Source: Candidatus Latescibacterota bacterium
GTDB taxonomy: Bacteria > Latescibacterota > UBA2968 > UBA8231
Length of the DNA stretch: 64,000 nucleotides
NCBI GenBank assembly: GCA_965200315.1
Contig: OZ241362.1
Location: 128,001-192,000 of the forward strand
Direction of reading: 5' to 3'
Below the pieces are notes generated by a model. That model saw only the letters and a program-made list of their open reading frames with translations, was not told where the DNA came from and searched no databases. The position numbers and the translations under genes were made by a program. Below are positions 1-60,750 of this stretch, piece after piece; within the stretch, counting starts at the first letter, position 1, and the number at the start of each line of letters is the position of its first letter.

Positions 1-546
1 CTGCGCGGCATAGAAGGGGCTGGGACGGCGGCGTATTTCAAGGCGCTGGGCACTTTTTTGCCGGCCGAGCTCCAATTCAAGGGGCGCAACCGACGCCCGC
101 CCAAAGATCCGGCCAATGCGCTGCTCAGCTTTGGCTACGCCTTGCTGGCCAACAGCGTAGAGGGCGCGATTTACTTGGTGGGGCTCGATCCGTACTTGGG
201 CTTTTTGCACGTGGTAGATTACGGCCGCCCTTCGCTGGCACTGGACTTGATGGAGGAATTTCGCCCGGTGTTGGTGGATGCGGTGGTCTTGGACTTGGCC
301 AATCACGGCCAGGTGCAGGGCGACGATTTTGAGCAGCGCGATGGGGGCGTGTTTCTGCGCGGCGATGGGCGCAAGCGGCTGATTGAGGCATACCAGCGGC
401 GTCTTGAAGATCGGGTTGCTTATCCGGTTGGAGCCGAGCGGGTGGAGCGTATTTCTTACCGGCGTTGCCTCGAATATCAAGTGCGCCGACTGGCTCGGGT
501 GATCTTGGGCGAGGCGGCTCACTACACAGCTTTTTTGGTGCGCTGA
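1..546 (+). CDS. cas1: CRISPR-associated endonuclease Cas1, 5'-truncated by the window edge
   Basis: Frame +1 is open from base 1 (LRGIEGAG..AYF). It contains the Cas1 motifs RNRRPPKDPANALLSFGY, GLDPYLGFLH and RPSLALDLMEEFRP, and lies directly upstream of cas2. Confidence 0.97.
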   Translation: MRGIEGAGTAAYFKALGTFLPAELQFKGRNRRPPKDPANALLSFGYALLANSVEGAIYLVGLDPYLGFLHVVDYGRPSLALDLMEEFRPVLVDAVVLDLANHGQVQGDDFEQRDGGVFLRGDGRKRLIEAYQRRLEDRVAYPVGAERVERISYRRCLEYQVRRLARVILGEAAHYTAFLVR

Positions 547-547
547 G

Positions 548-823
548 ATGTTTGTAGTCGTATGCTTTGACATCAGCTCGGATCGGACTCGTCGGCAGGC
601 GACTCGGGTGTTGGAAGACTACGGGACGCGGGTGCAGAAGAGCGTTTTCGAGTGTCGCATGGGTGAGCGGCAGTTCGTGGAGCTGCGGTACCGCATGAGT
701 CAGCTCGATTTGGCGGCAGGCGATCTAGTGCGCTATTATACGTTGTGTCGAGCGTGTCAAGCCAAAGTCGAATTTACCGGCGGTTTGCCTCCGCAGGAGG
801 AAAGAAGCCATATTATCGTCTGA
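548..823 (+). CDS. cas2: CRISPR-associated endoribonuclease Cas2
   Basis: 91 aa; N-terminal VVCFDIS and YGTRVQKSVFEC motifs; 1 bp after cas1. Confidence 0.97.
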   Translation: MFVVVCFDISSDRTRRQATRVLEDYGTRVQKSVFECRMGERQFVELRYRMSQLDLAAGDLVRYYTLCRACQAKVEFTGGLPPQEERSHIIV

Positions 824-1081
824 AAACAAAATTTGCGACCCTCGTAAAAAGATGTTCGCCAATATGACAAAATGGTCTTATACTCTTTTAGGCTACAACG
901 AATTAGGCATGTTACCTAGTCCAATCTTGGGTCGCAAATAGGTAACTACCTGTTCCGCAAGTGGTTAGATGAATACCCTTTCAGCAAGCGGCGCGTTTTT
1001 AGCGGGCAGATGCCTGTCAAAGTGGCGTGCGTCGCAAATGAGGGGCCAACTAAGTGTGGCTCAATAGATTAGAAAGGAGGA
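824..1081 (+). promoter_or_regulatory. CRISPR leader
   Basis: AT-richer non-coding gap between cas2 and the first repeat. It holds the inverted/direct motif ATTTGCGAC (831-839) / GTCGCAAAT (931-939, 1031-1039) and IHF-like CAAnnnnTTA sites (e.g. 1061-1071). Confidence 0.85.
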
Positions 1082-4000
1082 CACAGAATTTAGGACCCGA
1101 TTTGTAGGGGATTGAAACCCGATGCGGGCCTTTATAACCTCAGGCTTTGCACGCACAGAATTTAGGACCCGATTTGTAGGGGATTGAAACCCAGAACAGG
1201 GTGTCGTGCTTGCGGTTGAACTGTTTCACAGAATTTAGGACCCGATTTGTAGGGGATTGAAACCTCGTCCAGGGCTACCACCCCCTCTTGCTCTTCGTGG
1301 GGCACAGAATTTAGGACCCGATTTGTAGGGGATTGAAACTACGGGGTGCTGCGGAGGTGCTGCTGGAGGTGCTTTGCCACAGAATTTAGGACCCGATTTG
1401 TAGGGGATTGAAACTAAACGCGACGCGAAGGGGCCAACAGCGAGGAACGGCGGCACAGAATTTAGGACCCGATTTGTAGGGGATTGAAACGGCGGAGAAC
1501 GCTACAGCCATGGCGACGATCGCCATGGCACAGAATTTAGGACCCGATTTGTAGGGGATTGAAACTACTCCCTCCAAGAGGCGCTCAACGACCTCCAGCT
1601 CGCCTCACAGAATTTAGGACCCGATTTGTAGGGGATTGAAACCCCTGGCGGGCACCGGCTACGGCCAAGTCGCCGTCCACAGAATTTAGGACCCGATTTG
1701 TAGGGGATTGAAACCACCACCGAGATTAGGAGCTCTCGGACGCGGGTCATTCTGACACAGAATTTAGGACCCGATTTGTAGGGGATTGAAACCCGTAGCC
1801 TCCTTGAGCTCGGCCAAGAGCTTTGGGGATCACAGAATTTAGGACCCGATTTGTAGGGGATTGAAACGATCTGTACCCCCATTCTCTAGCGGGTCCTTCT
1901 AGAGATCCACAGAATTTAGGACCCGATTTGTAGGGGATTGAAACTACGGGTCCAGACCGAGCTTTCATCAACGACGACGCACCACAGAATTTAGGACCCG
2001 ATTTGTAGGGGATTGAAACGAGGGTCAGGTCGGCCAGGCGGGCGGCGGGGGGCAGCGTCACAGAATTTAGGACCCGATTTGTAGGGGATTGAAACCTTCG
2101 TGGTGCTTCGTGGGTGCGGGGATACTGAAAAGTTGCACAGAATTTAGGACCCGATTTGTAGGGGATTGAAACCTAATCGCGGGAGGCGGCCTCTTGGGCC
2201 TCCGGTGGAAACACAGAATTTAGGACCCGATTTGTAGGGGATTGAAACGCATACACAACGACCGCAGCCGCCTCGTCTTCGACCGCACAGAATTTAGGAC
2301 CCGATTTGTAGGGGATTGAAACCACCGCAGTCGGTCATCTGCTGGGCGCTCAGCTCCTGCACAGAATTTAGGACCCGATTTGTAGGGGATTGAAACTGAT
2401 AGGGAGGCCGCAATTGGCCTCTCGGAGGGGGACTCCCTGCAGCACAGAATTTAGGACCCGATTTGTAGGGGATTGAAACACGAAGAAGTTCGCCTGGACG
2501 ATCCCTAGGCGGGCGTCCAGCACAGAATTTAGGACCCGATTTGTAGGGGATTGAAACTACTACTACCGGCCGACCGTCGGCCAGTAGTACGCCGCCACAG
2601 AATTTAGGACCCGATTTGTAGGGGATTGAAACTCGGCCTTCGAGATGGGGATTGTCCAATAATAACACAGAATTTAGGACCCGATTTGTAGGGGATTGAA
2701 ACATGCCCTGCGCCTGGCCGTGCGCCCATACGCGGCCGCTGTGCGTCACAGAATTTAGGACCCGATTTGTAGGGGATTGAAACCTTTCTTTTAGTGTGCA
2801 TGCGCGGCATGCGTTTTCCCACACAGAATTTAGGACCCGATTTGTAGGGGATTGAAACACTTCGGGGAGGGAGGCTTTTTGCCACCCCTCCTCCGGTACA
2901 CAGAATTTAGGACCCGATTTGTAGGGGATTGAAACCCGTCACCAACGGCGGCGGTTACTACAGGTATTTCCGTCTCACAGAATTTAGGACCCGATTTGTA
3001 GGGGATTGAAACGATGAGAATGGCCCCGGCGACGGGGGCTGCCAGCGCACAGAATTTAGGACCCGATTTGTAGGGGATTGAAACGCGGCGGGGGTGGAGC
3101 TGGCCCTCGCGGGCCCACCGGCACAGAATTTAGGACCCGATTTGTAGGGGATTGAAACCTACTTTCTCCGGCAGACATACGAGTAGCGAAACTACACAGA
3201 ATTTAGGACCCGATTTGTAGGGGATTGAAACTCGTGGTAGGCATCGCCGGGCCCAGAATCCCGGCGCACCACAGAATTTAGGACCCGATTTGTAGGGGAT
3301 TGAAACTAGCAGGATGAGATAGTCGGAGTACGGCTGATCATATACCACAGAATTTAGGACCCGATTTGTAGGGGATTGAAACCACCATACTGGGCCGGGG
3401 ATGGCCCGCCCGTAGCCGGCGCACAGAATTTAGGACCCGATTTGTAGGGGATTGAAACGAACATACCAGGGCGACCAAGTGAATCGGCAGAGTGCCGACA
3501 CAGAATTTAGGACCCGATTTGTAGGGGATTGAAACTTCTCCAGGGCCGTGTCGAACGTCTTGGGCGTGCCGCAGTAGCACAGAATTTAGGACCCGATTTG
3601 TAGGGGATTGAAACGGGGGGATAACCATCTCGAGATGGAGGTAGCGCCCCCCCTGGGCGCATACCTCCACAGAATTTAGGACCCGATTTGTAGGGGATTG
3701 AAACTCGTAAGCGAGGAGACATTAAGTGGAGTTTTCACTCTCCACAGAATTTAGGACCCGATTTGTAGGGGATTGAAACGTCGAGGAACATCACACCACG
3801 CTCCCCCTTACCGGGGACACAGAATTTAGGACCCGATTTGTAGGGGATTGAAACCCCCTCCCCTTTACTTACTTCTCCTCGTCGGCAGCCGAAGCACAGA
3901 ATTTAGGACCCGATTTGTAGGGGATTGAAACGTGAAAAGCTTCGGCCATTCGGCCGACTGAAAATATAACACAGAATTTAGGACCCGATTTGTAGGGGAT

Positions 4001-7000
4001 TGAAACCGGCATACCCCTCTTAACGCAAGGAGAGACAACATGAGCATCACACAGAATTTAGGACCCGATTTGTAGGGGATTGAAACCGGCGGTCGCGCTC
4101 CGCCATCCGATTCATCTCCTCAGCCCAACACAGAATTTAGGACCCGATTTGTAGGGGATTGAAACGCTTTCTTTATCTCATCCTCTATAAAGCTGGCGGA
4201 CTTACGTCACAGAATTTAGGACCCGATTTGTAGGGGATTGAAACGTCTGCCATTCGCGCAAGAAGGCGGTTTTGAGCTCCCCACAGAATTTAGGACCCGA
4301 TTTGTAGGGGATTGAAACTAGCCGTTCTTGCTCCAATAGTAGGGCGGTATTATCGCGCACAGAATTTAGGACCCGATTTGTAGGGGATTGAAACCCCCGA
4401 TGAGGCCGCCAATGATTAGGGAAAGTACTGCTACACAGAATTTAGGACCCGATTTGTAGGGGATTGAAACATACAAAAATGTTCATCACTCATGCTCCTA
4501 TTAGGAGGGCACAGAATTTAGGACCCGATTTGTAGGGGATTGAAACGTTAGCTACGTCGATGGTCTCGTCGAGGGCTGCGTGGAGCACAGAATTTAGGAC
4601 CCGATTTGTAGGGGATTGAAACATAACATGCACTGGCCCATCAATGGGATTGATGCACCAGCACAGAATTTAGGACCCGATTTGTAGGGGATTGAAACGT
4701 ATCCCGTGCCGATGGCCCCGGGGAATATGGCCCAGCACAGAATTTAGGACCCGATTTGTAGGGGATTGAAACTCGGCTGCCGAGAAACGTTCCGTCCAGT
4801 CCTCAAAGGAACACAGAATTTAGGACCCGATTTGTAGGGGATTGAAACTAGGCGGAGCGGGGGTGGAGCTGGCCCTCGCGGGCCCACCACAGAATTTAGG
4901 ACCCGATTTGTAGGGGATTGAAACATGAAGCTGGCCCTCGCGGGCCCACTTCGTTCCCCAGCACAGAATTTAGGACCCGATTTGTAGGGGATTGAAACCA
5001 AAGGAATCGGCGGTTTCGGTAAAACGAGTTTTTTCGGCACAGAATTTAGGACCCGATTTGTAGGGGATTGAAACTTACTCCTCCTCCAGCGGATCGCCGT
5101 CCTTATCTGCGCACAGAATTTAGGACCCGATTTGTAGGGGATTGAAACTTCCGTCAGCGTTACTGTCAGCGTGTACAAAGCCGATGCCACAGAATTTAGG
5201 ACCCGATTTGTAGGGGATTGAAACCGGGAGCGCCGGCTCGAAGAGACGCTGGCTATCGCGGACACAGAATTTAGGACCCGATTTGTAGGGGATTGAAACG
5301 TGAGGAGGACCGCGCCCGACTCGTCGAAGCCGGAGGTCACAGAATTTAGGACCCGATTTGTAGGGGATTGAAACTCGAAGGCATCTACCGCGTCGACATG
5401 GTGGCGTCGGAGGGGCACAGAATTTAGGACCCGATTTGTAGGGGATTGAAACCTATGGGGTCCGTGTCCGGGACCTCGCCCGGGGTGAAGTGGCACAGAA
5501 TTTAGGACCCGATTTGTAGGGGATTGAAACCCCTTAATCCCCCAGCCACTACCCTAACGAAAGTATCCTCACAGAATTTAGGACCCGATTTGTAGGGGAT
5601 TGAAACTCTACGAGGGTGTCGATGGTTGCTTGTGGCACGTCCGCCACAGAATTTAGGACCCGATTTGTAGGGGATTGAAACTTTAAGTACTCGTCTTGCT
5701 CCGGAGTATCGGCCGCAAGGCACAGAATTTAGGACCCGATTTGTAGGGGATTGAAACAAGCAGGATTCGAGGCCGACGTCGCGGCCTCCCGGGGGTCACA
5801 GAATTTAGGACCCGATTTGTAGGGGATTGAAACTCGACTTCGCTTCTGTGTTCACGCCGCTGCCGGCGCACAGAATTTAGGACCCGATTTGTAGGGGATT
5901 GAAACGTTGCTCCAGGTGTTTAATCCGAAGATCGGTGCTCATTTCACAGAATTTAGGACCCGATTTGTAGGGGATTGAAACATGAATCCGATAGTTTCTG
6001 CTGAAGCCACTTACCGCTCCACAGAATTTAGGACCCGATTTGTAGGGGATTGAAACTCACATAGGAGCCTACTCATGACCACCGCCCTCACCGTACACAG
6101 AATTTAGGACCCGATTTGTAGGGGATTGAAACGTAGGTACGCCGCCACGCTGCGACGGCGTCCTTGTGCTGCACAGAATTTAGGACCCGATTTGTAGGGG
6201 ATTGAAACGTAGGTACGCCGCCACGCTGCGACGGCGTCCTTGTGCTGCACAGAATTTAGGACCCGATTTGTAGGGGATTGAAACGCTTTGGCGGCGGCCG
6301 CGTAGCGCCTCGCCGCCTCGCCCCACAGAATTTAGGACCCGATTTGTAGGGGATTGAAACTAACCACCTTGAGCACCTCCGTAAACGTCTCGGCGTCACA
6401 GAATTTAGGACCCGATTTGTAGGGGATTGAAACCTACCTGCACATCCTTCATCTTGCCAGGGTAAGAGGGTATATCACAGAATTTAGGACCCGATTTGTA
6501 GGGGATTGAAACTACTCGCTGGCGATCTGGCGCGCCGTCTTGGCCCATTCCGGCACAGAATTTAGGACCCGATTTGTAGGGGATTGAAACTCATGGTTCA
6601 ATCCTCTCGGTTGGGGGTGGGGCGGTTGCACAGAATTTAGGACCCGATTTGTAGGGGATTGAAACTTGGGTAGCGACCCACGCGACGTAGCACTCGCTCA
6701 GCACAGAATTTAGGACCCGATTTGTAGGGGATTGAAACCGCGGTCAAGCGCCGCTTCGGCTTTCGCTACCCTGCGACGCCACAGAATTTAGGACCCGATT
6801 TGTAGGGGATTGAAACCGAAATCCCCCACGCCGACCGTCGAACCGACGGCGGCTCACAGAATTTAGGACCCGATTTGTAGGGGATTGAAACATAGGCCAA
6901 GCCCCCACATTGGCCGCACTCCTGCATCACAGAATTTAGGACCCGATTTGTAGGGGATTGAAACAGGTGGTCGATCTGCAACTCTTGGAGTTGCTCTTTA

Positions 7001-10000
7001 GTCCACAGAATTTAGGACCCGATTTGTAGGGGATTGAAACTTAGGGCTAAAGTATTGTGCTGCAACGAGTTACGCGGGTCACAGAATTTAGGACCCGATT
7101 TGTAGGGGATTGAAACTGGCACGTTGCCCACGCTGGTGGCTCCTGTGCCGTCCACACAGAATTTAGGACCCGATTTGTAGGGGATTGAAACTTGCAGCAC
7201 AGACCCTTACAAGCCACAAAAAAAAGTTTCACAGAATTTAGGACCCGATTTGTAGGGGATTGAAACGTGAATGGTCTAGCCAGTCTGCAGATACTAGCCT
7301 GGACACAGAATTTAGGACCCGATTTGTAGGGGATTGAAACTTTTTTGGAGAAAAACCGTTTGCACATTATCGCGCGCCGCACAGAATTTAGGACCCGATT
7401 TGTAGGGGATTGAAACGATGCGTGCGTTAGCGGTTGCTGCAACCATTTACCGCTCACAGAATTTAGGACCCGATTTGTAGGGGATTGAAACGCGTGCGTA
7501 CGCGCGCGCGTTATGTACCTAGTACCTAGGCACAGAATTTAGGACCCGATTTGTAGGGGATTGAAACGATAGCCGGTAGCTCTTCGGACATCGCGCTTTC
7601 CTTCACAGAATTTAGGACCCGATTTGTAGGGGATTGAAACCCGTAGCGGGCTACCCCCTCTTCGTCGACTACGACATAGCACAGAATTTAGGACCCGATT
7701 TGTAGGGGATTGAAACATAGACGAACCCTTGTCTTTGTGCTCCTTGACCTTCTCCACAGAATTTAGGACCCGATTTGTAGGGGATTGAAACGAGGATGTT
7801 GTCCACCATCCCCGGAGTGGCGCCCTCCGGCACAGAATTTAGGACCCGATTTGTAGGGGATTGAAACGTGAAGATGAGCTAGTGCTTCGTCGTAAGGGTA
7901 TCTTCGCACAGAATTTAGGACCCGATTTGTAGGGGATTGAAACAACAAACCCTCAAGACGATTGCAGACTTTGTAATCCGACCACAGAATTTAGGACCCG
8001 ATTTGTAGGGGATTGAAACAACATGAACTACCCACTCGGCAAACCACGCTGCCTTCATCACAGAATTTAGGACCCGATTTGTAGGGGATTGAAACCCCGC
8101 AGGTGTACCATGACGCTGTCCAACGTCCTCGGGCACAGAATTTAGGACCCGATTTGTAGGGGATTGAAACCACATCCACCTGCACCGTAGGCGACGCTTT
8201 CGTCAGTTCCACAGAATTTAGGACCCGATTTGTAGGGGATTGAAACTCGTCGACCGTGATCGGACACCGAATGATGTAGTTAGCCTCACAGAATTTAGGA
8301 CCCGATTTGTAGGGGATTGAAACTGCAAAAGCACACGGCGATTGCTGGTACCGTGCGGTATACACAGAATTTAGGACCCGATTTGTAGGGGATTGAAACA
8401 TCGGACCCCGTCAACGAGACGAAGATACCCTTACGACACAGAATTTAGGACCCGATTTGTAGGGGATTGAAACCAGCACCTTCTGGCGGACGGCGCCCCA
8501 GGGGCGCGTCTTACCACAGAATTTAGGACCCGATTTGTAGGGGATTGAAACTAGTGCTTCTTGGGCCCGATTAATCGGGGTATTCTTGCGCACAGAATTT
8601 AGGACCCGATTTGTAGGGGATTGAAACCGTCGCTGGCCCCGCTCGTCGGCATCCCGACGACAGCACAGAATTTAGGACCCGATTTGTAGGGGATTGAAAC
8701 TGGCCTACGGGCCACGTTTGCGGCGATTGGTCCGCTCCTCACAGAATTTAGGACCCGATTTGTAGGGGATTGAAACCTAAGGTTGTGGTTGCGCTCGGGC
8801 TTCGGACCGAGCCACAGAATTTAGGACCCGATTTGTAGGGGATTGAAACTCCTCGGCGTCGGTGTAGGCCAAGACCGACCTCCACTGGCCACAGAATTTA
8901 GGACCCGATTTGTAGGGGATTGAAACTATGGGAGCGTCGGGTCAAACTCGTCAAGCTGCGACATGGCCACAGAATTTAGGACCCGATTTGTAGGGGATTG
9001 AAACATCTGTCGGTGGCAGCCGTATCAACCACGGACCACGCGCACAGAATTTAGGACCCGATTTGTAGGGGATTGAAACGACTTACGCGCCATACGGGCC
9101 GGGGAAATAGACCTAGGCACAGAATTTAGGACCCGATTTGTAGGGGATTGAAACCCATATAGTCCGGGGCGAGCGATGCGATCCTGAATGCTGCACAGAA
9201 TTTAGGACCCGATTTGTAGGGGATTGAAACAGTACGGCGACGTCTACAAGACCAGCATACCCCACGTGCCACAGAATTTAGGACCCGATTTGTAGGGGAT
9301 TGAAACTAGCGGCCGCGGCTGGCAGCCGCTTACGCGGTATTCGGCGCACAGAATTTAGGACCCGATTTGTAGGGGATTGAAACTCAAAGGCACTCCAAGC
9401 CAGCCACGCATACGGATCACTGCACAGAATTTAGGACCCGATTTGTAGGGGATTGAAACCTGATTGCTACGGTCCAAAGACGTTATCAGTTCATCCAGCG
9501 CACAGAATTTAGGACCCGATTTGTAGGGGATTGAAACCCAATTCTTCCTCCATTTTGGCGCGCCGGGTCTCGCCACACAGAATTTAGGACCCGATTTGTA
9601 GGGGATTGAAACTGCTGATGCGCCCCAAGAAAGGGGAGGAGGCGCCCACGCCCGGCACAGAATTTAGGACCCGATTTGTAGGGGATTGAAACTGGACGAC
9701 CTGACCCTCCTCGAGGGGGCGCTCGGTGCCGCCACAGAATTTAGGACCCGATTTGTAGGGGATTGAAACGCCGAACAGATCAATGAGATCGTCTTGCTTG
9801 GGGCTGGCACAGAATTTAGGACCCGATTTGTAGGGGATTGAAACTCTGTTCAGTTCTGCATTAGCCGCTTCCCACTCTTTGTCACAGAATTTAGGACCCG
9901 ATTTGTAGGGGATTGAAACCTACCAATTTACTCATTCTCCGAAAAAGCGCAATACTTTTTCACAGAATTTAGGACCCGATTTGTAGGGGATTGAAACGAG

Positions 10001-13000
10001 ATATGACGCTTGCGCTTGGCTTCGTCCTGGCACAGAATTTAGGACCCGATTTGTAGGGGATTGAAACTCTTGCGGATTGGCGCGGGCGTCAAGACGGGCG
10101 TCAAGACACAGAATTTAGGACCCGATTTGTAGGGGATTGAAACCGATTGCGAGATTACGGTATTCTTCGCAATCCGGAGTTCACAGAATTTAGGACCCGA
10201 TTTGTAGGGGATTGAAACGGAGAAGATCACGGCGCTGAGTTCATCTTGGTGGTAGTGTCACAGAATTTAGGACCCGATTTGTAGGGGATTGAAACTCACG
10301 CGCTTGCTGATGGAGCTTGTGGAGATGCTGCACTCACAGAATTTAGGACCCGATTTGTAGGGGATTGAAACGAATCTGGAGCTTGCGCTTGCGCGCCATC
10401 GGCTTGCGCCACAGAATTTAGGACCCGATTTGTAGGGGATTGAAACTGTGGTGAACTGCTTTTGAACTGCTGCGCTCCCTTGCGCCACAGAATTTAGGAC
10501 CCGATTTGTAGGGGATTGAAACCATATACGATATACGCGCGTATGTGCGTGTGCACGTGCGTCACAGAATTTAGGACCCGATTTGTAGGGGATTGAAACT
10601 GGAGGCCGGCGACCTGTTTGACGGCCATCACACCGGCGCACAGAATTTAGGACCCGATTTGTAGGGGATTGAAACTTCCTAGTAAGTTTGAGCCCGTCAA
10701 TCTCTACCTCGGACACAGAATTTAGGACCCGATTTGTAGGGGATTGAAACCTTACTGAGGTAGTTTCGGGCGACCTCGGCCAGCTTCCACAGAATTTAGG
10801 ACCCGATTTGTAGGGGATTGAAACGCACGATTCGCGTGCGCACGCGCGATATGTACCTAGGATCACAGAATTTAGGACCCGATTTGTAGGGGATTGAAAC
10901 ACCCGGTAGCTGCTCATAGTACCTCGTCCTTACCCTACACAGAATTTAGGACCCGATTTGTAGGGGATTGAAACTTGGCAGCGTGCCACTCGTCATTAGC
11001 CGCTACTACTGCACAGAATTTAGGACCCGATTTGTAGGGGATTGAAACTCAATGCAGATGGAGAGATGGCAGGTGGGGACACAGAATTTAGGACCCGATT
11101 TGTAGGGGATTGAAACGCTAGTTCTGCATGCAAGTTCAGTATCCGATTAGTCATTCACAGAATTTAGGACCCGATTTGTAGGGGATTGAAACGTCCTTCT
11201 CGTGGCGAGGTTGCACGGCCATCTCGAAGACACAGAATTTAGGACCCGATTTGTAGGGGATTGAAACGATCGCCCTTGTCGCCCTTGTCGCCCTTGGGTC
11301 CGCGTCACAGAATTTAGGACCCGATTTGTAGGGGATTGAAACCCTACTGCTGCCATAAGGATGATTTTGACTTCCCCGACACAGAATTTAGGACCCGATT
11401 TGTAGGGGATTGAAACTGATTGAGCTGCCGATTGGCAGCGTGCCACTCTTTGTCACAGAATTTAGGACCCGATTTGTAGGGGATTGAAACATCCAGGCGA
11501 GCTTGTTCTAGTTCTGCGAGCAACATCAGCACAGAATTTAGGACCCGATTTGTAGGGGATTGAAACCTGATGTAACCATCCCTCTTTATCCCGATAGCGC
11601 TGGGCACAGAATTTAGGACCCGATTTGTAGGGGATTGAAACTGCCCGCTCGCTGCCCGTCACGTTGTTCCTTCGGGCGGCACAGAATTTAGGACCCGATT
11701 TGTAGGGGATTGAAACCCAAGGAGATTGAGGATGGAGACCCATTTGCAGAAGATGCGCACAGAATTTAGGACCCGATTTGTAGGGGATTGAAACGCGCTT
11801 CGTACTGCTCTCTTCTCGTCACTTTCAATCTCCTCACAGAATTTAGGACCCGATTTGTAGGGGATTGAAACCACTCACGACGGGCGTCGGCAGCGGCTTC
11901 ACGCAGCCGCCACAGAATTTAGGACCCGATTTGTAGGGGATTGAAACTACTGACTTGCGAGCTGGCGGGCCGTCTTGGCCCATTCCCACAGAATTTAGGA
12001 CCCGATTTGTAGGGGATTGAAACATATTGTCGAAAGAGATCATTTTGGTTCCTCCTGCGCTCACAGAATTTAGGACCCGATTTGTAGGGGATTGAAACTG
12101 ATAATCCGATCATTGAGCTTTTTCAGGTTCTCTTGCACAGAATTTAGGACCCGATTTGTAGGGGATTGAAACCCATAGGTCTGTACGGTTCGCTCGATCA
12201 GTCTTTGATGCACAGAATTTAGGACCCGATTTGTAGGGGATTGAAACTCGCGTCATACTGTTCTTTCAACTTCGCTACCTGCGTCACAGAATTTAGGACC
12301 CGATTTGTAGGGGATTGAAACTCATAGCATTGAGCTTTTTCAGGTTCTCTTGTTGCCGGACACAGAATTTAGGACCCGATTTGTAGGGGATTGAAACCCT
12401 GCAACTTCGCGCTATTGCGTTCTCGCATTACGTTACACAGAATTTAGGACCCGATTTGTAGGGGATTGAAACTGATACGACGAGCCCGAGTTGTTCGCGC
12501 AGGAGTTTCACCTCACAGAATTTAGGACCCGATTTGTAGGGGATTGAAACCTTCGGGGTCCCGCCGGACCCCCAGCGAGATTTCCTTCGCACAGAATTTA
12601 GGACCCGATTTGTAGGGGATTGAAACGCGTCATAGGCCGCGTCAACGGCTTGTGCTGCGTCTCACAGAATTTAGGACCCGATTTGTAGGGGATTGAAACT
12701 TGAAAGTCATTTCCTCATCTCCTGATAGTGTGAACTGCCACAGAATTTAGGACCCGATTTGTAGGGGATTGAAACTACGTAAATTCAAACTCCTTCATTT
12801 GATCTCCTCAAGGGACACAGAATTTAGGACCCGATTTGTAGGGGATTGAAACTGAGCAGCGCCCGGCGCGCGCTTTCAAGCTGGCACGCTTCACAGAATT
12901 TAGGACCCGATTTGTAGGGGATTGAAACTTCTGCGTAGCTTACCGATAGCTTTTGATTCAGCCATCACAGAATTTAGGACCCGATTTGTAGGGGATTGAA

Positions 13001-16000
13001 ACTCGGGATCCTCTTACCACCGGTACCACCCGTTTGACTTGGCACAGAATTTAGGACCCGATTTGTAGGGGATTGAAACAAGAATAGCTCCCTACCCATC
13101 ACCTAGGCGATTACTTCGGCACAGAATTTAGGACCCGATTTGTAGGGGATTGAAACGCCCGCGATCCCCTCTATCGCCCTTGTCGCCCTTGTCGCACAGA
13201 ATTTAGGACCCGATTTGTAGGGGATTGAAACGTAATGCCTTCTCGGCACTGAGGGCGGCCGCTGGCCGTCACAGAATTTAGGACCCGATTTGTAGGGGAT
13301 TGAAACTCAAGCCCTCCCCGTGGCCCTCCGCCTCGCCTTTCTGAACACAGAATTTAGGACCCGATTTGTAGGGGATTGAAACTTGTCGAATACTAATCAC
13401 ATAGGAGCCTACTCATGACCACCACAGAATTTAGGACCCGATTTGTAGGGGATTGAAACTTACAGGTACGAACAAAGTCATCTATATGCTCCATGAGGCA
13501 CAGAATTTAGGACCCGATTTGTAGGGGATTGAAACGTATCTCCTGCGCTCTATGTGCTGAAATAAGGTTCATCACAGAATTTAGGACCCGATTTGTAGGG
13601 GATTGAAACATACTCTCCGTAAGTCATAATGCCCCTCCTGCGCTTTCGCGCGGCACAGAATTTAGGACCCGATTTGTAGGGGATTGAAACTTGTTAGTTG
13701 CAAGTTGCGAGAAGCGCGTTGCGCGCTTCACAGAATTTAGGACCCGATTTGTAGGGGATTGAAACCACCGGGCCGCCATACGCCTCGACCCCACGATCGT
13801 GCGCCACAGAATTTAGGACCCGATTTGTAGGGGATTGAAACCCCAGTTCCCGGAGGATTGAATCCACCATCCCCGGCCACAGAATTTAGGACCCGATTTG
13901 TAGGGGATTGAAACCATGGACCGTGCCGCGCGCCACGTCGGCGAGCCAGAAAGCACAGAATTTAGGACCCGATTTGTAGGGGATTGAAACTAGTTCTGCG
14001 AGCAACATTAGGGTTCTTCTTTCGTTATGCACAGAATTTAGGACCCGATTTGTAGGGGATTGAAACTTCTTTCGTTATGCGCCCGCGAGCGCGTGATACC
14101 GCTTCACAGAATTTAGGACCCGATTTGTAGGGGATTGAAACTTATAAAGCTCCCACGCCCAATCTTCGAAAGATCGGATTAACACAGAATTTAGGACCCG
14201 ATTTGTAGGGGATTGAAACGGGAAGGATCTTCATCCCACCACCAGCTACCGAAGTCCACAGAATTTAGGACCCGATTTGTAGGGGATTGAAACTCGGGCG
14301 TCAAGCGTTCAAAGGTCTGATTCTCCAGCGGCACAGAATTTAGGACCCGATTTGTAGGGGATTGAAACTGCGATAAAGACGCGCCGGATCATTGCCGAGC
14401 TTGAAGACACAGAATTTAGGACCCGATTTGTAGGGGATTGAAACACTTCTCTTTCGCTTGCCATATCGCGTATGAATCCGATAGCCACAGAATTTAGGAC
14501 CCGATTTGTAGGGGATTGAAACATGCCGTTCTGCTCTAGCTGGGCGCGGGCGTGGTCCAGCGCACAGAATTTAGGACCCGATTTGTAGGGGATTGAAACT
14601 TGCTACTAGGCGCGGCGGCGGCGCACCCGTTCAACGACACAGAATTTAGGACCCGATTTGTAGGGGATTGAAACCCCAGCGCGCAAATGCGGCGCGGTAT
14701 TCCGCATAGAGCTTCACAGAATTTAGGACCCGATTTGTAGGGGATTGAAACGTTCTCGCGCCGTAGGCGCGCCGTGAGGATGGCCGTCACCACAGAATTT
14801 AGGACCCGATTTGTAGGGGATTGAAACCCCAGCGCGCAAATGCGGCGCGGTATTCCGCATAGAGCTTCACAGAATTTAGGACCCGATTTGTAGGGGATTG
14901 AAACGTTCTCGCGCCGTAGGCGCGCCGTGAGGATGGCCGTCACCACAGAATTTAGGACCCGATTTGTAGGGGATTGAAACCCGAAGATGCGGCTTGGTGG
15001 GCGGCGATCAGCTCTAGGAGCACAGAATTTAGGACCCGATTTGTAGGGGATTGAAACTCAGCGCTTCGCGCGCCCTCGACAACTCGGATTCAGCGCACAG
15101 AATTTAGGACCCGATTTGTAGGGGATTGAAACCTTTCGTTATGCGCCTATCGGCGCGTGATTGATACCGCTTCACAGAATTTAGGACCCGATTTGTAGGG
15201 GATTGAAACCCGATTGGAAGAAAAGTTCAATCTCTACTTTCTTCATCCACAGAATTTAGGACCCGATTTGTAGGGGATTGAAACGAAAGAAACAGTTAGT
15301 TTCTGCTGAAGCCATTTGCCGGACCACAGAATTTAGGACCCGATTTGTAGGGGATTGAAACTCGAAGGCGCGGCGCCGCATCGCGTCGTCGTCGCCGGCG
15401 CACAGAATTTAGGACCCGATTTGTAGGGGATTGAAACTTCGATGCGCTCGCGCCATAGGCGCACCTCCTCCTCCGCACAGAATTTAGGACCCGATTTGTA
15501 GGGGATTGAAACTCTTGCCTGCCGAGCACGACCGCTTGATCCACTCTCCGCACAGAATTTAGGACCCGATTTGTAGGGGATTGAAACTCGCGTTCTCCCA
15601 TACCTCGTATGCGTGCCTATATGCGCGACACAGAATTTAGGACCCGATTTGTAGGGGATTGAAACTAGACTCCTTCCTTTTCTTTAGCTTTGAGAGTACC
15701 TCACCACAGAATTTAGGACCCGATTTGTAGGGGATTGAAACTTAGTGGTTGTGAGAGCCACTTACCGCTCCAGCCTTCACCACAGAATTTAGGACCCGAT
15801 TTGTAGGGGATTGAAACTGCTCTAGCAATGTCACTTTAGTTCCCTCTCTTTGTTTGCCACAGAATTTAGGACCCGATTTGTAGGGGATTGAAACCGTAAT
15901 CGCCTATCTGAGGTGCTACAAGCGTCCTATGACCACAGAATTTAGGACCCGATTTGTAGGGGATTGAAACCTGTAATGGCCTATTTGGCCGTTAAGTGGA

Positions 16001-19000
16001 TGCCTTGGGCACAGAATTTAGGACCCGATTTGTAGGGGATTGAAACTGGATCTGCGCTCGGCCGAGAGCTTGCAAGCATCCTCAAACACAGAATTTAGGA
16101 CCCGATTTGTAGGGGATTGAAACCACTTGAAAACCACCCAATAGGAGACTGATATGAGCATCACAGAATTTAGGACCCGATTTGTAGGGGATTGAAACCC
16201 ATGACGGCATGGACGCCGCCAAGGCCGTTGACGGCGACACAGAATTTAGGACCCGATTTGTAGGGGATTGAAACAGGTAGACCAGCTTGACCAGCGCCAG
16301 CGGCGTCAGCTCCTCACAGAATTTAGGACCCGATTTGTAGGGGATTGAAACCCAATGAGGCCGCCGATTAGTAGACATACTAATGCTTTCCACAGAATTT
16401 AGGACCCGATTTGTAGGGGATTGAAACTTAAATCGCCGAAGCCCTCGCCAGCGAGGGTGATGCTTCACAGAATTTAGGACCCGATTTGTAGGGGATTGAA
16501 ACCCGGTCGTCTGATGCCATATCCACAGGCTGCGGTTCTCACAGAATTTAGGACCCGATTTGTAGGGGATTGAAACGCCCGATGAGCAGGCTGACGCCGG
16601 CGGTCGCTAGGACACAGAATTTAGGACCCGATTTGTAGGGGATTGAAACCGGACGGCGCCAAGGTGATCGCCGGTGATGGCGTAGCCACACAGAATTTAG
16701 GACCCGATTTGTAGGGGATTGAAACCGTCGACCGCACTACGATATCGAGGCATCGTCGTCGCTGCACAGAATTTAGGACCCGATTTGTAGGGGATTGAAA
16801 CCCAAGGACCCCTACCAGATACGGTCGGCCTATACGATGGGCCACAGAATTTAGGACCCGATTTGTAGGGGATTGAAACAGCGCTATTCGCGCCGGGTCG
16901 GCCGCATCCAGATGCGCACAGAATTTAGGACCCGATTTGTAGGGGATTGAAACCCAAGGCACTTCTTCGCACGCAAGCGGTACACAAGCGCGACACAGAA
17001 TTTAGGACCCGATTTGTAGGGGATTGAAACCACCGTGACGCCTGCCCCCGGTGGTGTAATTATCGGCGGCACAGAATTTAGGACCCGATTTGTAGGGGAT
17101 TGAAACGATATACTAACGTCTCATGCGGCTGCGGCTATGACGGGCACAGAATTTAGGACCCGATTTGTAGGGGATTGAAACCCCGAAAGGCTTCGCGGAT
17201 CCGCCGAGCGGAGTTACGCTCACAGAATTTAGGACCCGATTTGTAGGGGATTGAAACGCAAGCCAAGGACCCGCGCCAGATGGCGGCGGCCTATATGACA
17301 CAGAATTTAGGACCCGATTTGTAGGGGATTGAAACTTAGACTAATAAAGAGTTTCATTTCGTTATCCTTAGAGCACAGAATTTAGGACCCGATTTGTAGG
17401 GGATTGAAACTACATCCCGAGCGAGGCATGCCTCTTCTACCCGACCCACAGAATTTAGGACCCGATTTGTAGGGGATTGAAACTTGCGTATGCCCCCGTC
17501 TAGACTATTGCCCGTCCCTGTCCCACAGAATTTAGGACCCGATTTGTAGGGGATTGAAACTCAGCCGCTGCTCTTGGTGCTGGTCTACGCCTTCCTCCGC
17601 CACAGAATTTAGGACCCGATTTGTAGGGGATTGAAACCCCGTTCCCTTCCCCTTCGAGCACGATGCTCTCAGGGGCACAGAATTTAGGACCCGATTTGTA
17701 GGGGATTGAAACTCGCCACGATGGCGACAGCCGCGATGACCGTCCATGCGCACAGAATTTAGGACCCGATTTGTAGGGGATTGAAACGAAACCGTTTGGG
17801 GTCTCCTTCCACTCCGTCTCCCCCGGCACAGAATTTAGGACCCGATTTGTAGGGGATTGAAACATTAGGGCTTTTTGTCCAAGCGTCTTCGCCCGGCATG
17901 CGGCACAGAATTTAGGACCCGATTTGTAGGGGATTGAAACGAGGGCCTCACCACCGAGCCCCTCAAAGGCCTCAAGCACCACAGAATTTAGGACCCGATT
18001 TGTAGGGGATTGAAACTATTACTCCCTCGGCGAGGCGGGTTTCTGCGGGAAATTCCACAGAATTTAGGACCCGATTTGTAGGGGATTGAAACGCGGCAGC
18101 AGCAGCCTTCTTGGCGGCCTTTTTTGCTTCTCACAGAATTTAGGACCCGATTTGTAGGGGATTGAAACCGCCGAACTCTTTCTGGAACCCCTCGGTGAGG
18201 AGGGCACAGAATTTAGGACCCGATTTGTAGGGGATTGAAACACCAGGCCATCAACGGCTGCACGCAGGCACTCCAGCACCTTCACAGAATTTAGGACCCG
18301 ATTTGTAGGGGATTGAAACTTCAGCCCCACTATATCGTACGGATACTGGATCGCATACCACAGAATTTAGGACCCGATTTGTAGGGGATTGAAACGAGGT
18401 TGAAGACACGACGACCGCGGGGCGGCCGTCGAGGCACAGAATTTAGGACCCGATTTGTAGGGGATTGAAACCCCAGCGCGCGCAGCTTATGGGCTACCGT
18501 GCCGTAGGACACAGAATTTAGGACCCGATTTGTAGGGGATTGAAACATATCTGGCCGGGCTGGACGAAGCAGGCCGTCTGCCGCCCACAGAATTTAGGAC
18601 CCGATTTGTAGGGGATTGAAACATGGGGACTTGGTGTATCATGGGCATACTTCAATCCTCCACAGAATTTAGGACCCGATTTGTAGGGGATTGAAACTAG
18701 CTGGTGTGTGCGCTGGAGGGCTTGCCCCATATCGCGCACAGAATTTAGGACCCGATTTGTAGGGGATTGAAACGTACATTTCATCTCCGTCTCCTTTTTT
18801 GGAGTGGGAGCCACAGAATTTAGGACCCGATTTGTAGGGGATTGAAACGCGGAGCATCTCGTCGTGATACCGACGGATGCGGTCGCGCACAGAATTTAGG
18901 ACCCGATTTGTAGGGGATTGAAACATAGCGACGTCATACTCTTATCCTCAGCTGGCCACGGCACACAGAATTTAGGACCCGATTTGTAGGGGATTGAAAC

Positions 19001-19678
19001 GTGGTCGGCTCCCGCTCCGGCGGGGCCTCCAGGTGGAGCTCCACAGAATTTAGGACCCGATTTGTAGGGGATTGAAACGTACTGCCCCACCTCGAACGCC
19101 GGCACCGCATCCACCTCCACAGAATTTAGGACCCGATTTGTAGGGGATTGAAACGTTAGCTTCTCGTAATCCTCTGCAATATCGTAATAGCGCGCAGAAT
19201 TTAGGACCCGATTTGTAGGGGATTGAAACACAAGTTACGCCATTCTATCTTCAGCGAGACTCGTCGCAGAATTTAGGACCCGATTTGTAGGGGATTGAAA
19301 CACATAGGGATTAGTACATCCTCTCAGTAGGGAGTAGGTCGCAGAATTTAGGACCCGATTTGTAGGGGATTGAAACGCCCCAGAAGCGAACACGCCACTC
19401 GCCCGCCGCATAGACGCAGAATTTAGGACCCGATTTGTAGGGGATTGAAACGGGTGGGTATTCCGTTCTCCTGCAATTCGGCGCGGGCGCGGCGCAGAAT
19501 TTAGGACCCGATTTGTAGGGGATTGAAACATCCTGCGACGTGGTCGGCCAAGGCCTGCGCTTCCTGCGCAGAATTTAGGACCCGATTTGTAGGGGATTGA
19601 AACCCTTGACGATGTGCTGCTCTTTGCTGCTCATAGTTCAACGCAGAATTTAGGACCCGATTTGTAGGGGATTGAAAC
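1082..19678 (+). CRISPR. Very large CRISPR array, about 245-250 repeats (estimate), repeat CACAGAATTTAGGACCCGATTTGTAGGGGATTGAAAC (37 nt), spacers roughly 33-46 nt
   Basis: Invariant 37-nt direct repeat with a short CCC/GGG stem and the ATTGAAAC 8-nt 3' handle typical of Cas6-processed type I/III arrays. The last 7 repeats (19193-19678) start CGCAG, marking the trailer end. Confidence 0.99.
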
Positions 19679-59754: not shown

Positions 59755-60342
59755 CTACGCCGGCTGTGTTGCCTGTTTATTTGGATTGTTTTCATCCCAT
59801 TTCCAGTTCAACGGGTTGCTTTGAATATAGACGCGGATGGTATCCAATGATTTTTCATTTCGGATGATGTGGTCGTAGAAGGACCGTTGCCATATCCGTT
59901 TTTCAAATGGCGGCAGAGCGCCAAATCTCACCTTTTGAATATACTCATTAGTGGCCATGGTCTTGAACCATTGAATCATTTCTTGTAGGGGCGAACCTGG
60001 GGGTTCGCCTTGTTTTGTAGATTTGTTCAATGTCGTGGTGGGCAGACACGTAGGTCTGCCCCTACGGTGGATATTCGAGGGTGGGCCTACGATTGCGACG
60101 ATGCCGTGAAGATGATTGGGCATGATCACGTATTCATCCAATTCGCTATTGGGAAACTTGTTTTTTATTTCGTTCCACCAATGATCAATGATTTTTCCCG
60201 CCTCATTCAAAATCATGTCGTCTTCTACAATTTTGCCAAACAGACATTGCCTATTTTGCGTACAAATCGTCACAAAATAGTACCCTATTTGGGAATAATC
60301 GTAATTATGTAACCTGTTCCGCTTTCTATTCTGTCCATTCAT
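59755..60342 (-). mobile_element. REP-associated tyrosine transposase (RAYT, Y1 HUH family)
   Basis: YDYSQIGYYFVTICT, MPNHLHGI (HUH) and WQRSFYDHIIR..YIQSNP; flanked by GTAG-type palindromes. Confidence 0.9.
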
Positions 60343-60750
60343 AAATCGTCTATTTCGTTTTGGGACAGACACGTAGGTCTGTCCCTACGTTTTCGTATAT
60401 CGTCGTTTTCATGTGTATGGTTTATTTTTTGTAGGGTCGAACCGATGTGTTCGCCCTTTTATCCGTTGTTCCCATCTATTCGTTACATAGATCGTCTATT
60501 TTGTTTTGGTACAGATAGATAGGTCTGTCCCCCGTTTTCGTATATCGTCGTTTTCATGTGTATGGTTTATTTTTTTGTAGGGTCGAACCGATGTGTTCGC
60601 CCTTTTATCCGTTGTTCCTATCTATTCATTACATAGATTGTCTATTTTGTTTTGGTACAGATAGATAGGTCTGTCCCTACGTTTTCGTATATCGTCGTTT
60701 TCATGTGTATGGTGTAGGGGTGAACCGATGTGTTCGCCCTTTTATCCGCT
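60340..60750. repeat. About 2.8 tandem copies of a 146-bp unit, each with two REP palindromes
   Basis: Units start at 60340, 60486 and 60632. Each has GG(G/T)ACAGA..TAGGTCTGTCCC(TAC) and GTAGGG..GAACCGATGTGTTCGCCCT. Confidence 0.9.

Follow-up and report, generated by a model that had tools for sequence, protein, structure and literature searches.

Why should the spacers of a long CRISPR array, gathered over many infections, tend to lie in one orientation relative to the genes that they recognise? The question is raised by array A2, which carries 245 spacers within a window of 64,000 nucleotides (nt; the whole stretch of DNA analysed here) from a Candidatus Latescibacterota bacterium (assembly GCA_965200315.1, contig OZ241362.1, positions 128,001 to 192,000 of the forward strand). 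A first-pass annotation of this DNA had described families of independently acquired spacers that repeatedly hit the same coding motifs of phage relatives, always antisense, and had proposed an RNA-targeting type III effector together with strong positional hotspots. The evidence set out below suggests that A2 probably serves a type III-B (Cmr) CRISPR-Cas system as its principal stock of spacers, with selection leaving an array enriched in spacers antisense to phage mRNA.

The spacer families themselves are real and lie far above chance. An all-versus-all ungapped comparison of the 245 spacers (match +1, mismatch -1.5) gave 21 same-orientation and 2 opposite-orientation pairs at a score of at least 14, against a mean of 0.5 in six mononucleotide shuffles, and 29 and 8 pairs, respectively, at a score of at least 12 (six-shuffle mean 4.0). 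Three of the 21 same-orientation pairs are exact duplicates and two more follow from these, leaving approximately 16 that are independent; with duplicates collapsed, a score of at least 13 yielded 22 related but non-identical pairs in 15 families (two of four members, two of three and eleven of two). The 19 intervals originally quoted for seven peptide families all correspond exactly to spacers, and their reverse-complement translations agree with the peptides given. Related partners are between 1 and 188 array positions apart, bearing out the proposal that the same targets were revisited across the array's history. Many related pairs differ at 10–30% of their sites, with much of this variation synonymous, which fits repeated encounters with diverged relatives and not escape mutants.

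Families of this kind could in principle also arise if spacers were duplicated within the array and subsequently drifted. Three identical pairs (sp67 and sp68, sp180 and sp182, sp181 and sp183) are indeed array-internal duplications and not independent acquisitions, and array A3 of the same genome contains long duplicated blocks, but for the non-identical families such an origin is extremely improbable. A 34-nt core is identical in all 246 repeats of A2 and the sole variant position is confined to the last seven (repeats 240–246, which start CGC where all others start CAC, and which mark the old, distal end of the array). As the repeats are nearly free of mutation, mutation within the array cannot account for 5–10 differences per 38-nt spacer. 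Moreover, most related pairs have shifted boundaries, and their differences preserve the reading frame; for example, all seven differences between sp228 and spacer 1 of array A1 are synonymous. Exact duplicates aside, the families were thus acquired independently, as first proposed.

Relatedness extends to the other arrays of the genome. Comparison of A2 with A3 gave 13 related pairs in the same orientation and none in the opposite orientation, while the three relations between A2 and arrays A4 and A1 (sp95, sp125 and sp228) were all in opposite orientation, although the direction of transcription of A1 is not established. Three arrays of the genome are linked to Cas3, and A4 and A1 spacers match the same phage stretches as sp95, sp125 and sp228, which raises the prospect that a co-resident type I system generated the families by primed adaptation, feeding same-strand fragments from the vicinity of an existing target into A2; the overlapping spacers with shifted boundaries likewise resemble priming clusters. 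Nevertheless, this origin is very unlikely. The type I spacers are in opposite orientation in all three cases and the repeats differ between the arrays, while related spacers within A2 are not adjacent but as many as 188 positions apart. Many pairs also differ at 10–30% of sites, as expected of different phage variants and not of one event, and a small sample of flanks inferred from overlapping spacers (nine upstream and nine downstream) revealed no shared protospacer adjacent motif (PAM).

Whether the families are antisense is a separate matter from whether they are related, because synonymous third-position changes cannot assign a strand: each minus-strand frame shares its third positions with a plus-strand frame. 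Stops, synonymous and non-synonymous changes were therefore counted in all six frames of each family, and single spacers were re-read. On this basis, the claim that all seven families are antisense held in part: three are clearly antisense (SGKWL, EW(H/E)AA and EWAKTARQ) and one weakly so (WAREGQLH), while the remaining three (QENLKKLN, PGMVD.IL and IGGLIG) have open frames with equal or similar counts on both strands, and none is clearly sense. For example, the best reverse-complement frame of the SGKWL family contains no stops, 9 synonymous and 7 non-synonymous changes, against 2 synonymous and 14 non-synonymous in the best forward frame, and in the EWAKTARQ family the forward frame that would hold the synonymous changes is interrupted by a stop. 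On the reverse complement the WAREGQLH spacers differ by two synonymous changes, against V>M and E>K when read forward. Further clearly antisense groups are formed by sp14 with three A3 spacers, sp32 with A3 spacers 33 and 41, and sp38 with A3 spacer 58, so that, with sp95/A4 spacer 12 and sp228/A1 spacer 1, eight families or pairs are clearly antisense and none clearly sense. Several single readings were abandoned on re-examination. The chain sp138/171/172, initially read as a gene end followed by a gene start on the reverse complement, was withdrawn as it has open frames across both strands, and sp66/163 and sp199, initially taken as sense from a ribosome-binding and start motif, were dropped as their reverse complements are equally readable (for sp66/163, AGGAG-N7-ATG on the forward strand and an open frame ending in a stop on the reverse complement).

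An array-wide estimate was obtained with a codon model trained on 1025 long host open reading frames (ORFs), which recovers the right strand for 80% of spacer-sized fragments of host genes. By this model, the reverse complement is the coding strand in 150 of the 245 A2 spacers (binomial p = 5e-4), and these antisense calls were steady along the array (26–35 per block of 49 spacers). Corrected for the accuracy of the model, the antisense fraction of A2 is roughly 0.7–0.8, a poorly bounded estimate near 0.75 with wide limits from about 0.6 to 1. A strand bias is therefore present across the array as a whole, but it is not absolute, as three spacers that match the host's own genes are sense. The same skew was found in A3 (65/108 antisense) and in arrays of the same repeat family at eight related loci (148 antisense versus 83, of 231; p = 2e-5). 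In contrast, the three Cas3-linked arrays of the genome skew in the opposite direction (17/52 antisense, 35/52 sense-like; p = 0.018), from which it follows that the model does not inherently favour reverse complements. The number of spacers without an open frame on either strand (5 versus 4) was a measure without power.

Gene starts provide a further indication of strand. A motif consisting of a Shine–Dalgarno core, 4–9 nt and ATG (SD+ATG) was present in 18 reverse complements of A2 spacers (6.1 ± 2.4 in shuffles) versus 8 forward sequences (3.4 ± 1.8 in shuffles), and in 14 versus 3 in A3. The roughly threefold excess over shuffles on the reverse complements of A2 weakly suggests some preference for the starts of phage genes.

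Spacers that match the host's own chromosome behave differently. Three spacers (sp55, sp100 and sp209) match host genes perfectly, each lying in a long ORF whose GC content by codon position follows the pattern of host genes, and the three target genes are conserved across the genus at 88–98% identity. All three are sense, so that the crRNA (CRISPR RNA) would be unable to pair with the transcript, which is what counter-selection against autoimmunity predicts (PMC8860593). Sense insertion thus does occur, which argues against a strictly strand-directed uptake of spacers.

This last point bears on a different account of the skew, in which strand is fixed at uptake and not by later selection: the adaptation module CAPP-Cas1-Cas2 would draw its spacers from an intermediate that is strand-specific and arises where phage DNA is transcribed, such as displaced single strands that the primase-polymerase converts to duplex, and would integrate them in fixed orientation. 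The gene for CAPP lies directly upstream of cas1, and in 7 of 9 related loci CAPP is followed by an array on the same strand. In addition, the agreement of orientation within families (34 same versus 2 opposite) is stronger than the array-wide estimate, and SD+ATG spacers are over-represented, as might be anticipated if uptake is transcription-dependent near promoters and ORF starts, as reported for type III systems (PMC13575424). However, A3 is served by a Cas1 without a CAPP and yet shows the same skew (65/108; SD+ATG 14 versus 3), all three self-matching spacers are sense, CAPPs are reported to be poor on RNA templates (PMC8211822), and uptake is described as orientation-independent in S. 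thermophilus and Thermus (PMC8860593, PMC7515739). Fixation of strand at uptake is therefore considered unlikely. A more specific version, in which an enzyme of the CAPP-TPR type makes uptake both strand- and site-selective, producing prespacers of fixed polarity from the single-stranded DNA that becomes accessible where the phage is transcribed, is decidedly unlikely, being disfavoured by the equal skew of the CAPP-less A3 and by the sense self-spacers; if true, A2 would document, in nature, adaptation that is coupled to transcription and assisted by a polymerase, in a type III system without a reverse transcriptase.

Selection by an RNA-guided effector presupposes that such an effector exists, and the genome does encode type III-B (Cmr) effectors, in two modules located approximately 455 kb and 2.9 Mb from A2. 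The first (582–590 kb) comprises Cmr2 (219.8 bits), Cmr3 (99.8 bits, just under the cut-off of 100.4), Cmr4 (254.8 bits) and a Cmr6–Cmr1 fusion, and is accompanied by a CARF protein, Cas1 and the 110-repeat array A3. The second (3.0 Mb) comprises Cmr1, Cmr2, Cmr4, Cmr5, Cmr6, Csx16 and a TM1812-family CARF protein without an array; its Cmr2 is only 612 aa long, and there is a Cmr3-sized gap at ~9.9–11.2 kb of the extracted locus (L036). At the A2 locus itself, the genes within 8 kb upstream of the array encode, in order, Cas6 (PF10040), an HD protein, a CARF protein, CAPP, an unfused Cas1 and Cas2, with no cas10, csm, cmr, cas3, cas8 or reverse transcriptase fusion among them. The type III effector of the first-pass annotation is thus present in the genome but does not adjoin the array, and its suggestion that cas10, csm or cmr genes or a fusion of reverse transcriptase and Cas1 might be found upstream was not borne out; nor does the locus carry cas3 or cas8, and no PAM was visible in the few inferred flanks. 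As the locus is without effector genes, any effector must act in trans. The repeats of A2 and A3 have their last 12 nt in common, along with most of the preceding hairpin region, and both end in ...GGGGATTGAAAC on the strand of their cas genes. Use of A2 by Cmr in trans is the best reading of this locus, inferred from the shared repeat end.

Three features indicate that the leader is the stretch next to cas2 and that the crRNA comes from the + strand: the upstream cas genes are on the + strand, the variant repeats are at the far end and the repeat ends in ATTGAAAC, which we take to be the usual 8-nt Cas6 tag. A scan of the leader for promoters returned one weak promoter-like site, not above chance, and Rfam gave no match on the leader and first repeats. 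In the scheme proposed, Cas1–Cas2, probably helped by CAPP, would add DNA fragments of ~38 nt next to the leader, in either orientation and with no need of a PAM. The array would be transcribed on the + strand, and Cas6 would cleave within each repeat, 8 nt short of the spacer that follows, to give crRNAs that carry the ATTGAAAC tag and would then be loaded in trans into the distant Cmr complexes. If Cmr fires only upon pairing of the crRNA with a transcript, spacers antisense to phage genes would allow survival, while those antisense to host genes would lead to death. Over many infections by diverged relatives of a few phages, this would enrich the array in antisense spacers, with overlapping or repeated hits on conserved coding stretches, and the self-matching spacers that persist would be those in the harmless sense orientation.

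Several observations weigh against this explanation. As the searches yielded no protospacer, all statements on strand, gene class, PAM and phage identity are indirect. The only thread tying Cmr to A2 is the shared end of the repeat, and neither the 8 kb of cas genes upstream nor the 10 kb downstream of the array contains an effector. In addition, the codon model was right for only 13 of 18 and 12 of 17 spacers whose strand had been assigned independently, the forward SD+ATG excess (8 versus 3.4 ± 1.8) hints that some phage spacers are sense, and the self-matching spacers number only three, for which an all-sense outcome would arise by chance once in eight.

Protospacers were sought in several collections. 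Among the INPHARED phages (megablast with the whole array and blastn with its three parts), only the collagen-like Gly-X-Y sequence of sp135 gave matches; these lie in tail or tail-fibre genes of actinophages and were rejected as protospacers on account of their low complexity. The reverse complements of both sp135 (11268-11305) and sp160 (13157-13194) encode a collagen-like Gly-X-Y repeat, and these two were the only spacers with database matches, again to actinophage tail-fibre genes. The plasmids of PLSDB yielded no protospacer. Pattern scans gave no matches in the JGI metagenomes or in a genome contig collection, and none in IMG/VR apart from two for one degenerate pattern, where approximately two were expected by chance; these were likewise rejected, as no other spacer matched those loci. 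Within 40 related genomes, the spacers had no matches beyond related arrays and the three host genes. A further match, in related genome G004 (C1 ~2591340; L034 ~10340-10372), proved to be a solitary repeat of similar sequence, outside any array. The arrays of relatives share no spacers with A2: 148 of their spacers gave no same-orientation and one opposite-orientation pair with A2, and a second set of 170 spacers, from loci partly overlapping the first, gave one of each. To our knowledge, Candidatus Latescibacterota is known only from metagenomes, which is probably why no matching phages were found.

The overlaps among spacers were additionally proposed to reflect strong positional hotspots, but these are not required. 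In simulations placing the 242 unique spacers uniformly on one strand of a target of given length, a target of 60 kb produced a mean of 24.8 overlapping pairs and at least four clusters of three or more with a probability of 0.13, and a target of 80 kb produced 18.6 pairs, with a probability of 0.04. A2 has 22 pairs and four clusters of three or more, and uniform sampling of 60–70 kb of one strand would give a similar number of pairs (~22). A small effective target, equivalent to the transcribed strand of roughly one phage genome, is thus enough to account for the overlaps, and hotspots are needed only if the real pool of targets is much larger. Overlaps between diverged sequences are under-detected, which would make the effective target even smaller.

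The pattern in A2 matches published type III behaviour. In natural type III arrays, the coding strand is the target in an average of 65% of cases and in 88% in the III-B system of Moraxella, and a PAM is evident for only 8% of the type III repeat clusters that have cas1-cas2 of their own (PMC8482600). In the III-A and III-B systems of Thermus thermophilus, uptake draws on both strands, and it is selection that leaves a very strong bias and confines the targets to a narrow region (PMC7515739). The III-A system of S. thermophilus integrates spacers independently of orientation and functional self-targeting spacers are counter-selected, with uptake peaking after early promoters and 20% of resistant clones targeting one gene (PMC8860593, PMC13575424); type III hotspots are located at early promoters and ORF starts (PMC13575424). 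A2 resembles these repertoires in its mostly mRNA-complementary crRNAs, repeated targets, a hint of enrichment at ORF starts and self-matching spacers that do not pair with their transcripts, and no PAM is visible in the few flanks inferred for it. It differs from them in that the evidence comes from the spacers themselves, none of which maps to a phage, and in that the host phylum is uncultured, the array very long (245 spacers) and the effectors apart from it. The arrangement is also reminiscent of the compatible arrays that systems of type I and of type III share in trans (PMC8482600), with the effector away from the array and the 3' end of the repeat shared with a Cmr-adjoining array; however, unlike those arrays, A2 has its own Cas1–Cas2 and Cas6 and no visible type I PAM, and the sharing would be among type III loci.

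The adaptation module can likewise be compared with characterised systems. Enzymes of the CAPP-TPR type next to Cas1–Cas2 in type III loci have been described biochemically, and the A2 locus is organised like that of MpCAPP-Cas1-Cas2 (CAPP_A) from Marinitoga piezophila, with TPR and AEP domains encoded directly upstream of cas1-cas2 and the array in a type III context (PMC8211822). In contrast to MpCAPP, the CAPP here is known by sequence alone and is a predicted primase-polymerase. The main text of that study uses 'strand bias' nowhere and 'protospacer' once and appears to be without an analysis of the spacers of CAPP-linked arrays (PMC8211822); no such analysis was found among the related papers listed either, judged by titles and the openings of abstracts. 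The closest CAPP loci (77–81% identity, nine loci) are in metagenome-assembled genomes labelled Candidatus Latescibacterota. Type III systems with RT-Cas1, such as those of Marinomonas mediterranea and Vibrio vulnificus, reportedly also have an adaptation module with an extra polymerase beside Cas1. At the A2 locus, however, this polymerase is an AEP primase-polymerase and not a reverse transcriptase, and Cas1 is unfused; nothing indicates uptake from RNA. No reverse transcriptase is fused or adjacent to Cas1 at the locus, where the neighbour is the AEP enzyme, and this statement concerns the locus, as no genome-wide search for reverse transcriptases was made.

While A2 leaves knowledge of type III immunity unchanged, it illustrates cleanly, in a natural setting, the predictions of laboratory studies of type III systems, and does so in a phylum without cultured members or known phages. 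Given viromes from the same habitat, its 245 spacers and the 109 of A3 constitute a resource for linking uncultured phages to their host. The presence in one genome of a CAPP-linked array beside a type III array without a CAPP also offers a natural comparison for the role of CAPP in adaptation.

Table 1 Coordinates of array A2, its spacers and adjacent genes (positions in the window unless given as genome positions), and of the other arrays in the genome.
Feature	Position	Strand	Remarks
cas1, 3' part	1..546	+	gene start upstream of the window (19494 of the upstream flank L001); TIGR00287 311 bits, genome 127554-128519
cas2	548..823	+	91 aa; TIGR01573 58.4 bits, cut-off 24.5
Leader	824..1081	+	258 nt; GC 0.45 versus 0.59 in spacers
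CRISPR array A2	1082..19678	+	246 repeats of 37 nt ending in ATTGAAAC, 245 spacers
WAREGQLH family	sp27 3085..3121, sp50 4849-4887, sp51 4925-4961	-	weakly antisense; boundaries shifted 8-17 nt
IGGLIG family	sp44 4395..4433, sp202 16352-16390	.	open frames on both strands
sp55	5225..5262	+	38/38 match to host gene, genome 477096-477133; sense
SGKWL family	sp65 5982..6019, sp84 7417-7454, sp188 15285-15324, sp194 15742-15780, sp177 14445-14485	-	clearly antisense
sp66 and sp163	6057..6095, 13383-13422	.	26 identical nt at gene boundary; both strands readable
sp67 = sp68	6133..6247	+	exact tandem duplicate; array-internal duplication
EWAKTARQ family	sp72 6513..6553, sp144 11948-11986	-	clearly antisense; same 5' boundary, 5 differences
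PGMVD.IL family	sp89 7792..7830, sp169 13842-13877, A3 spacer 51	.	four synonymous changes on either strand
sp90	7868..7906	.	17 identical nt with sp97 (8400-8436), opposite orientation; one of the 2 opposite pairs scoring at least 14
sp95	8247..8286	-	reverse-complement peptide as in A4 spacer 12 (genome 3781066-3781100), 3 synonymous differences; A4 spacer in opposite orientation
sp100	8628..8663	+	36/36 match to host gene (439-codon open frame), genome 4657264-4657299; sense
EW(H/E)AA family	sp116 9845..9882, sp131 10975-11011, sp137 11417-11453	-	clearly antisense
QENLKKLN family	sp146 12099..12135, sp149 12322-12360	.	25 identical nt shared; forward frame open too
sp180/181 = sp182/183	14675-14790, 14828-14943		exact duplicate block; array-internal duplication
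sp209	16880..16916	+	37/37 match to host gene (813-codon open frame), genome 213121-213157; sense
sp228	18320..18358	-	reverse complement gives the 12-residue peptide of A1 spacer 1 (genome 7768-7803); 7 nt differences, all synonymous
Array A0	genome 71-838		Cas3-linked
Array A1	genome 7732-8122		direction of transcription not established
Array A3	genome 592785-601234		110 repeats, 109 spacers; beside Cmr module 1; has Cas1, no CAPP
Array A4	genome 3780242-3782141		Cas3-linked (type I)
Array A5	genome 4186939-4188014		Cas3-linked

The genome contains four cas1 genes and a single CAPP, and Cas3-like helicases were found only near arrays A0, A4 and A5 (genome 5.355, 3.777 and 4.190 Mb). Spacer length in A2 ranges from 31 to 53 nt with a mode of 39. 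In A3, spacers 82–90 recur as spacers 91–99 and several spacers are present three times, and as a result of these long block duplications its 109 spacers represent far fewer independent acquisitions.

Immediately upstream of A2, the cas1 ORF (~350 aa) matches the Cas1 model only. The CAPP (643 aa) matches NF040561 at 358.3 bits (cut-off 200), with a PF22548 AEP domain (146 bits) and TPR_19 repeats (47 bits), and no PriCT-like C-terminal domain was detected with Pfam. In L001, the flanking stretch upstream of the window, the CAPP gene runs to position 19551 and cas1, also on that strand, begins at 19494, so that CAPP is operonic with cas1-cas2 and the array. The upstream CARF protein is of the TM1812 family (581 aa). 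Between it and Cas6 lies the HD protein, which consists of an HD domain only (178 aa; L001 15178-15714, equivalent to genome 123178-123714) and resembles the N-terminus of Cas10/Csm1 (TIGR02578 positions 2–146). This lone HD protein and the 612-aa Cmr2 of the array-less module at 3.0 Mb raise the possibility of a split Cas10.

Adjoining cas6 on its upstream side, and on the same strand, is a gene for a 695-aa protein with AAA-ATPase_like (PF09820) and PDDEXK_9 (PF08011) domains (L001 12123-14210), beyond which are metabolic genes. The genes downstream of the array are housekeeping in nature and encode a short-chain dehydrogenase, GT28 and GT4 glycosyltransferases, RecG, an aminotransferase and an amino-acid kinase with ACT domains, probably an aspartate kinase; a Cas3-like match inside the window proved to be the RecG. 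Far from the array, at window positions 60336-60748, is a tandem repeat with a 146-bp unit in 2.9 copies (90% matches), situated in an AT-rich stretch.

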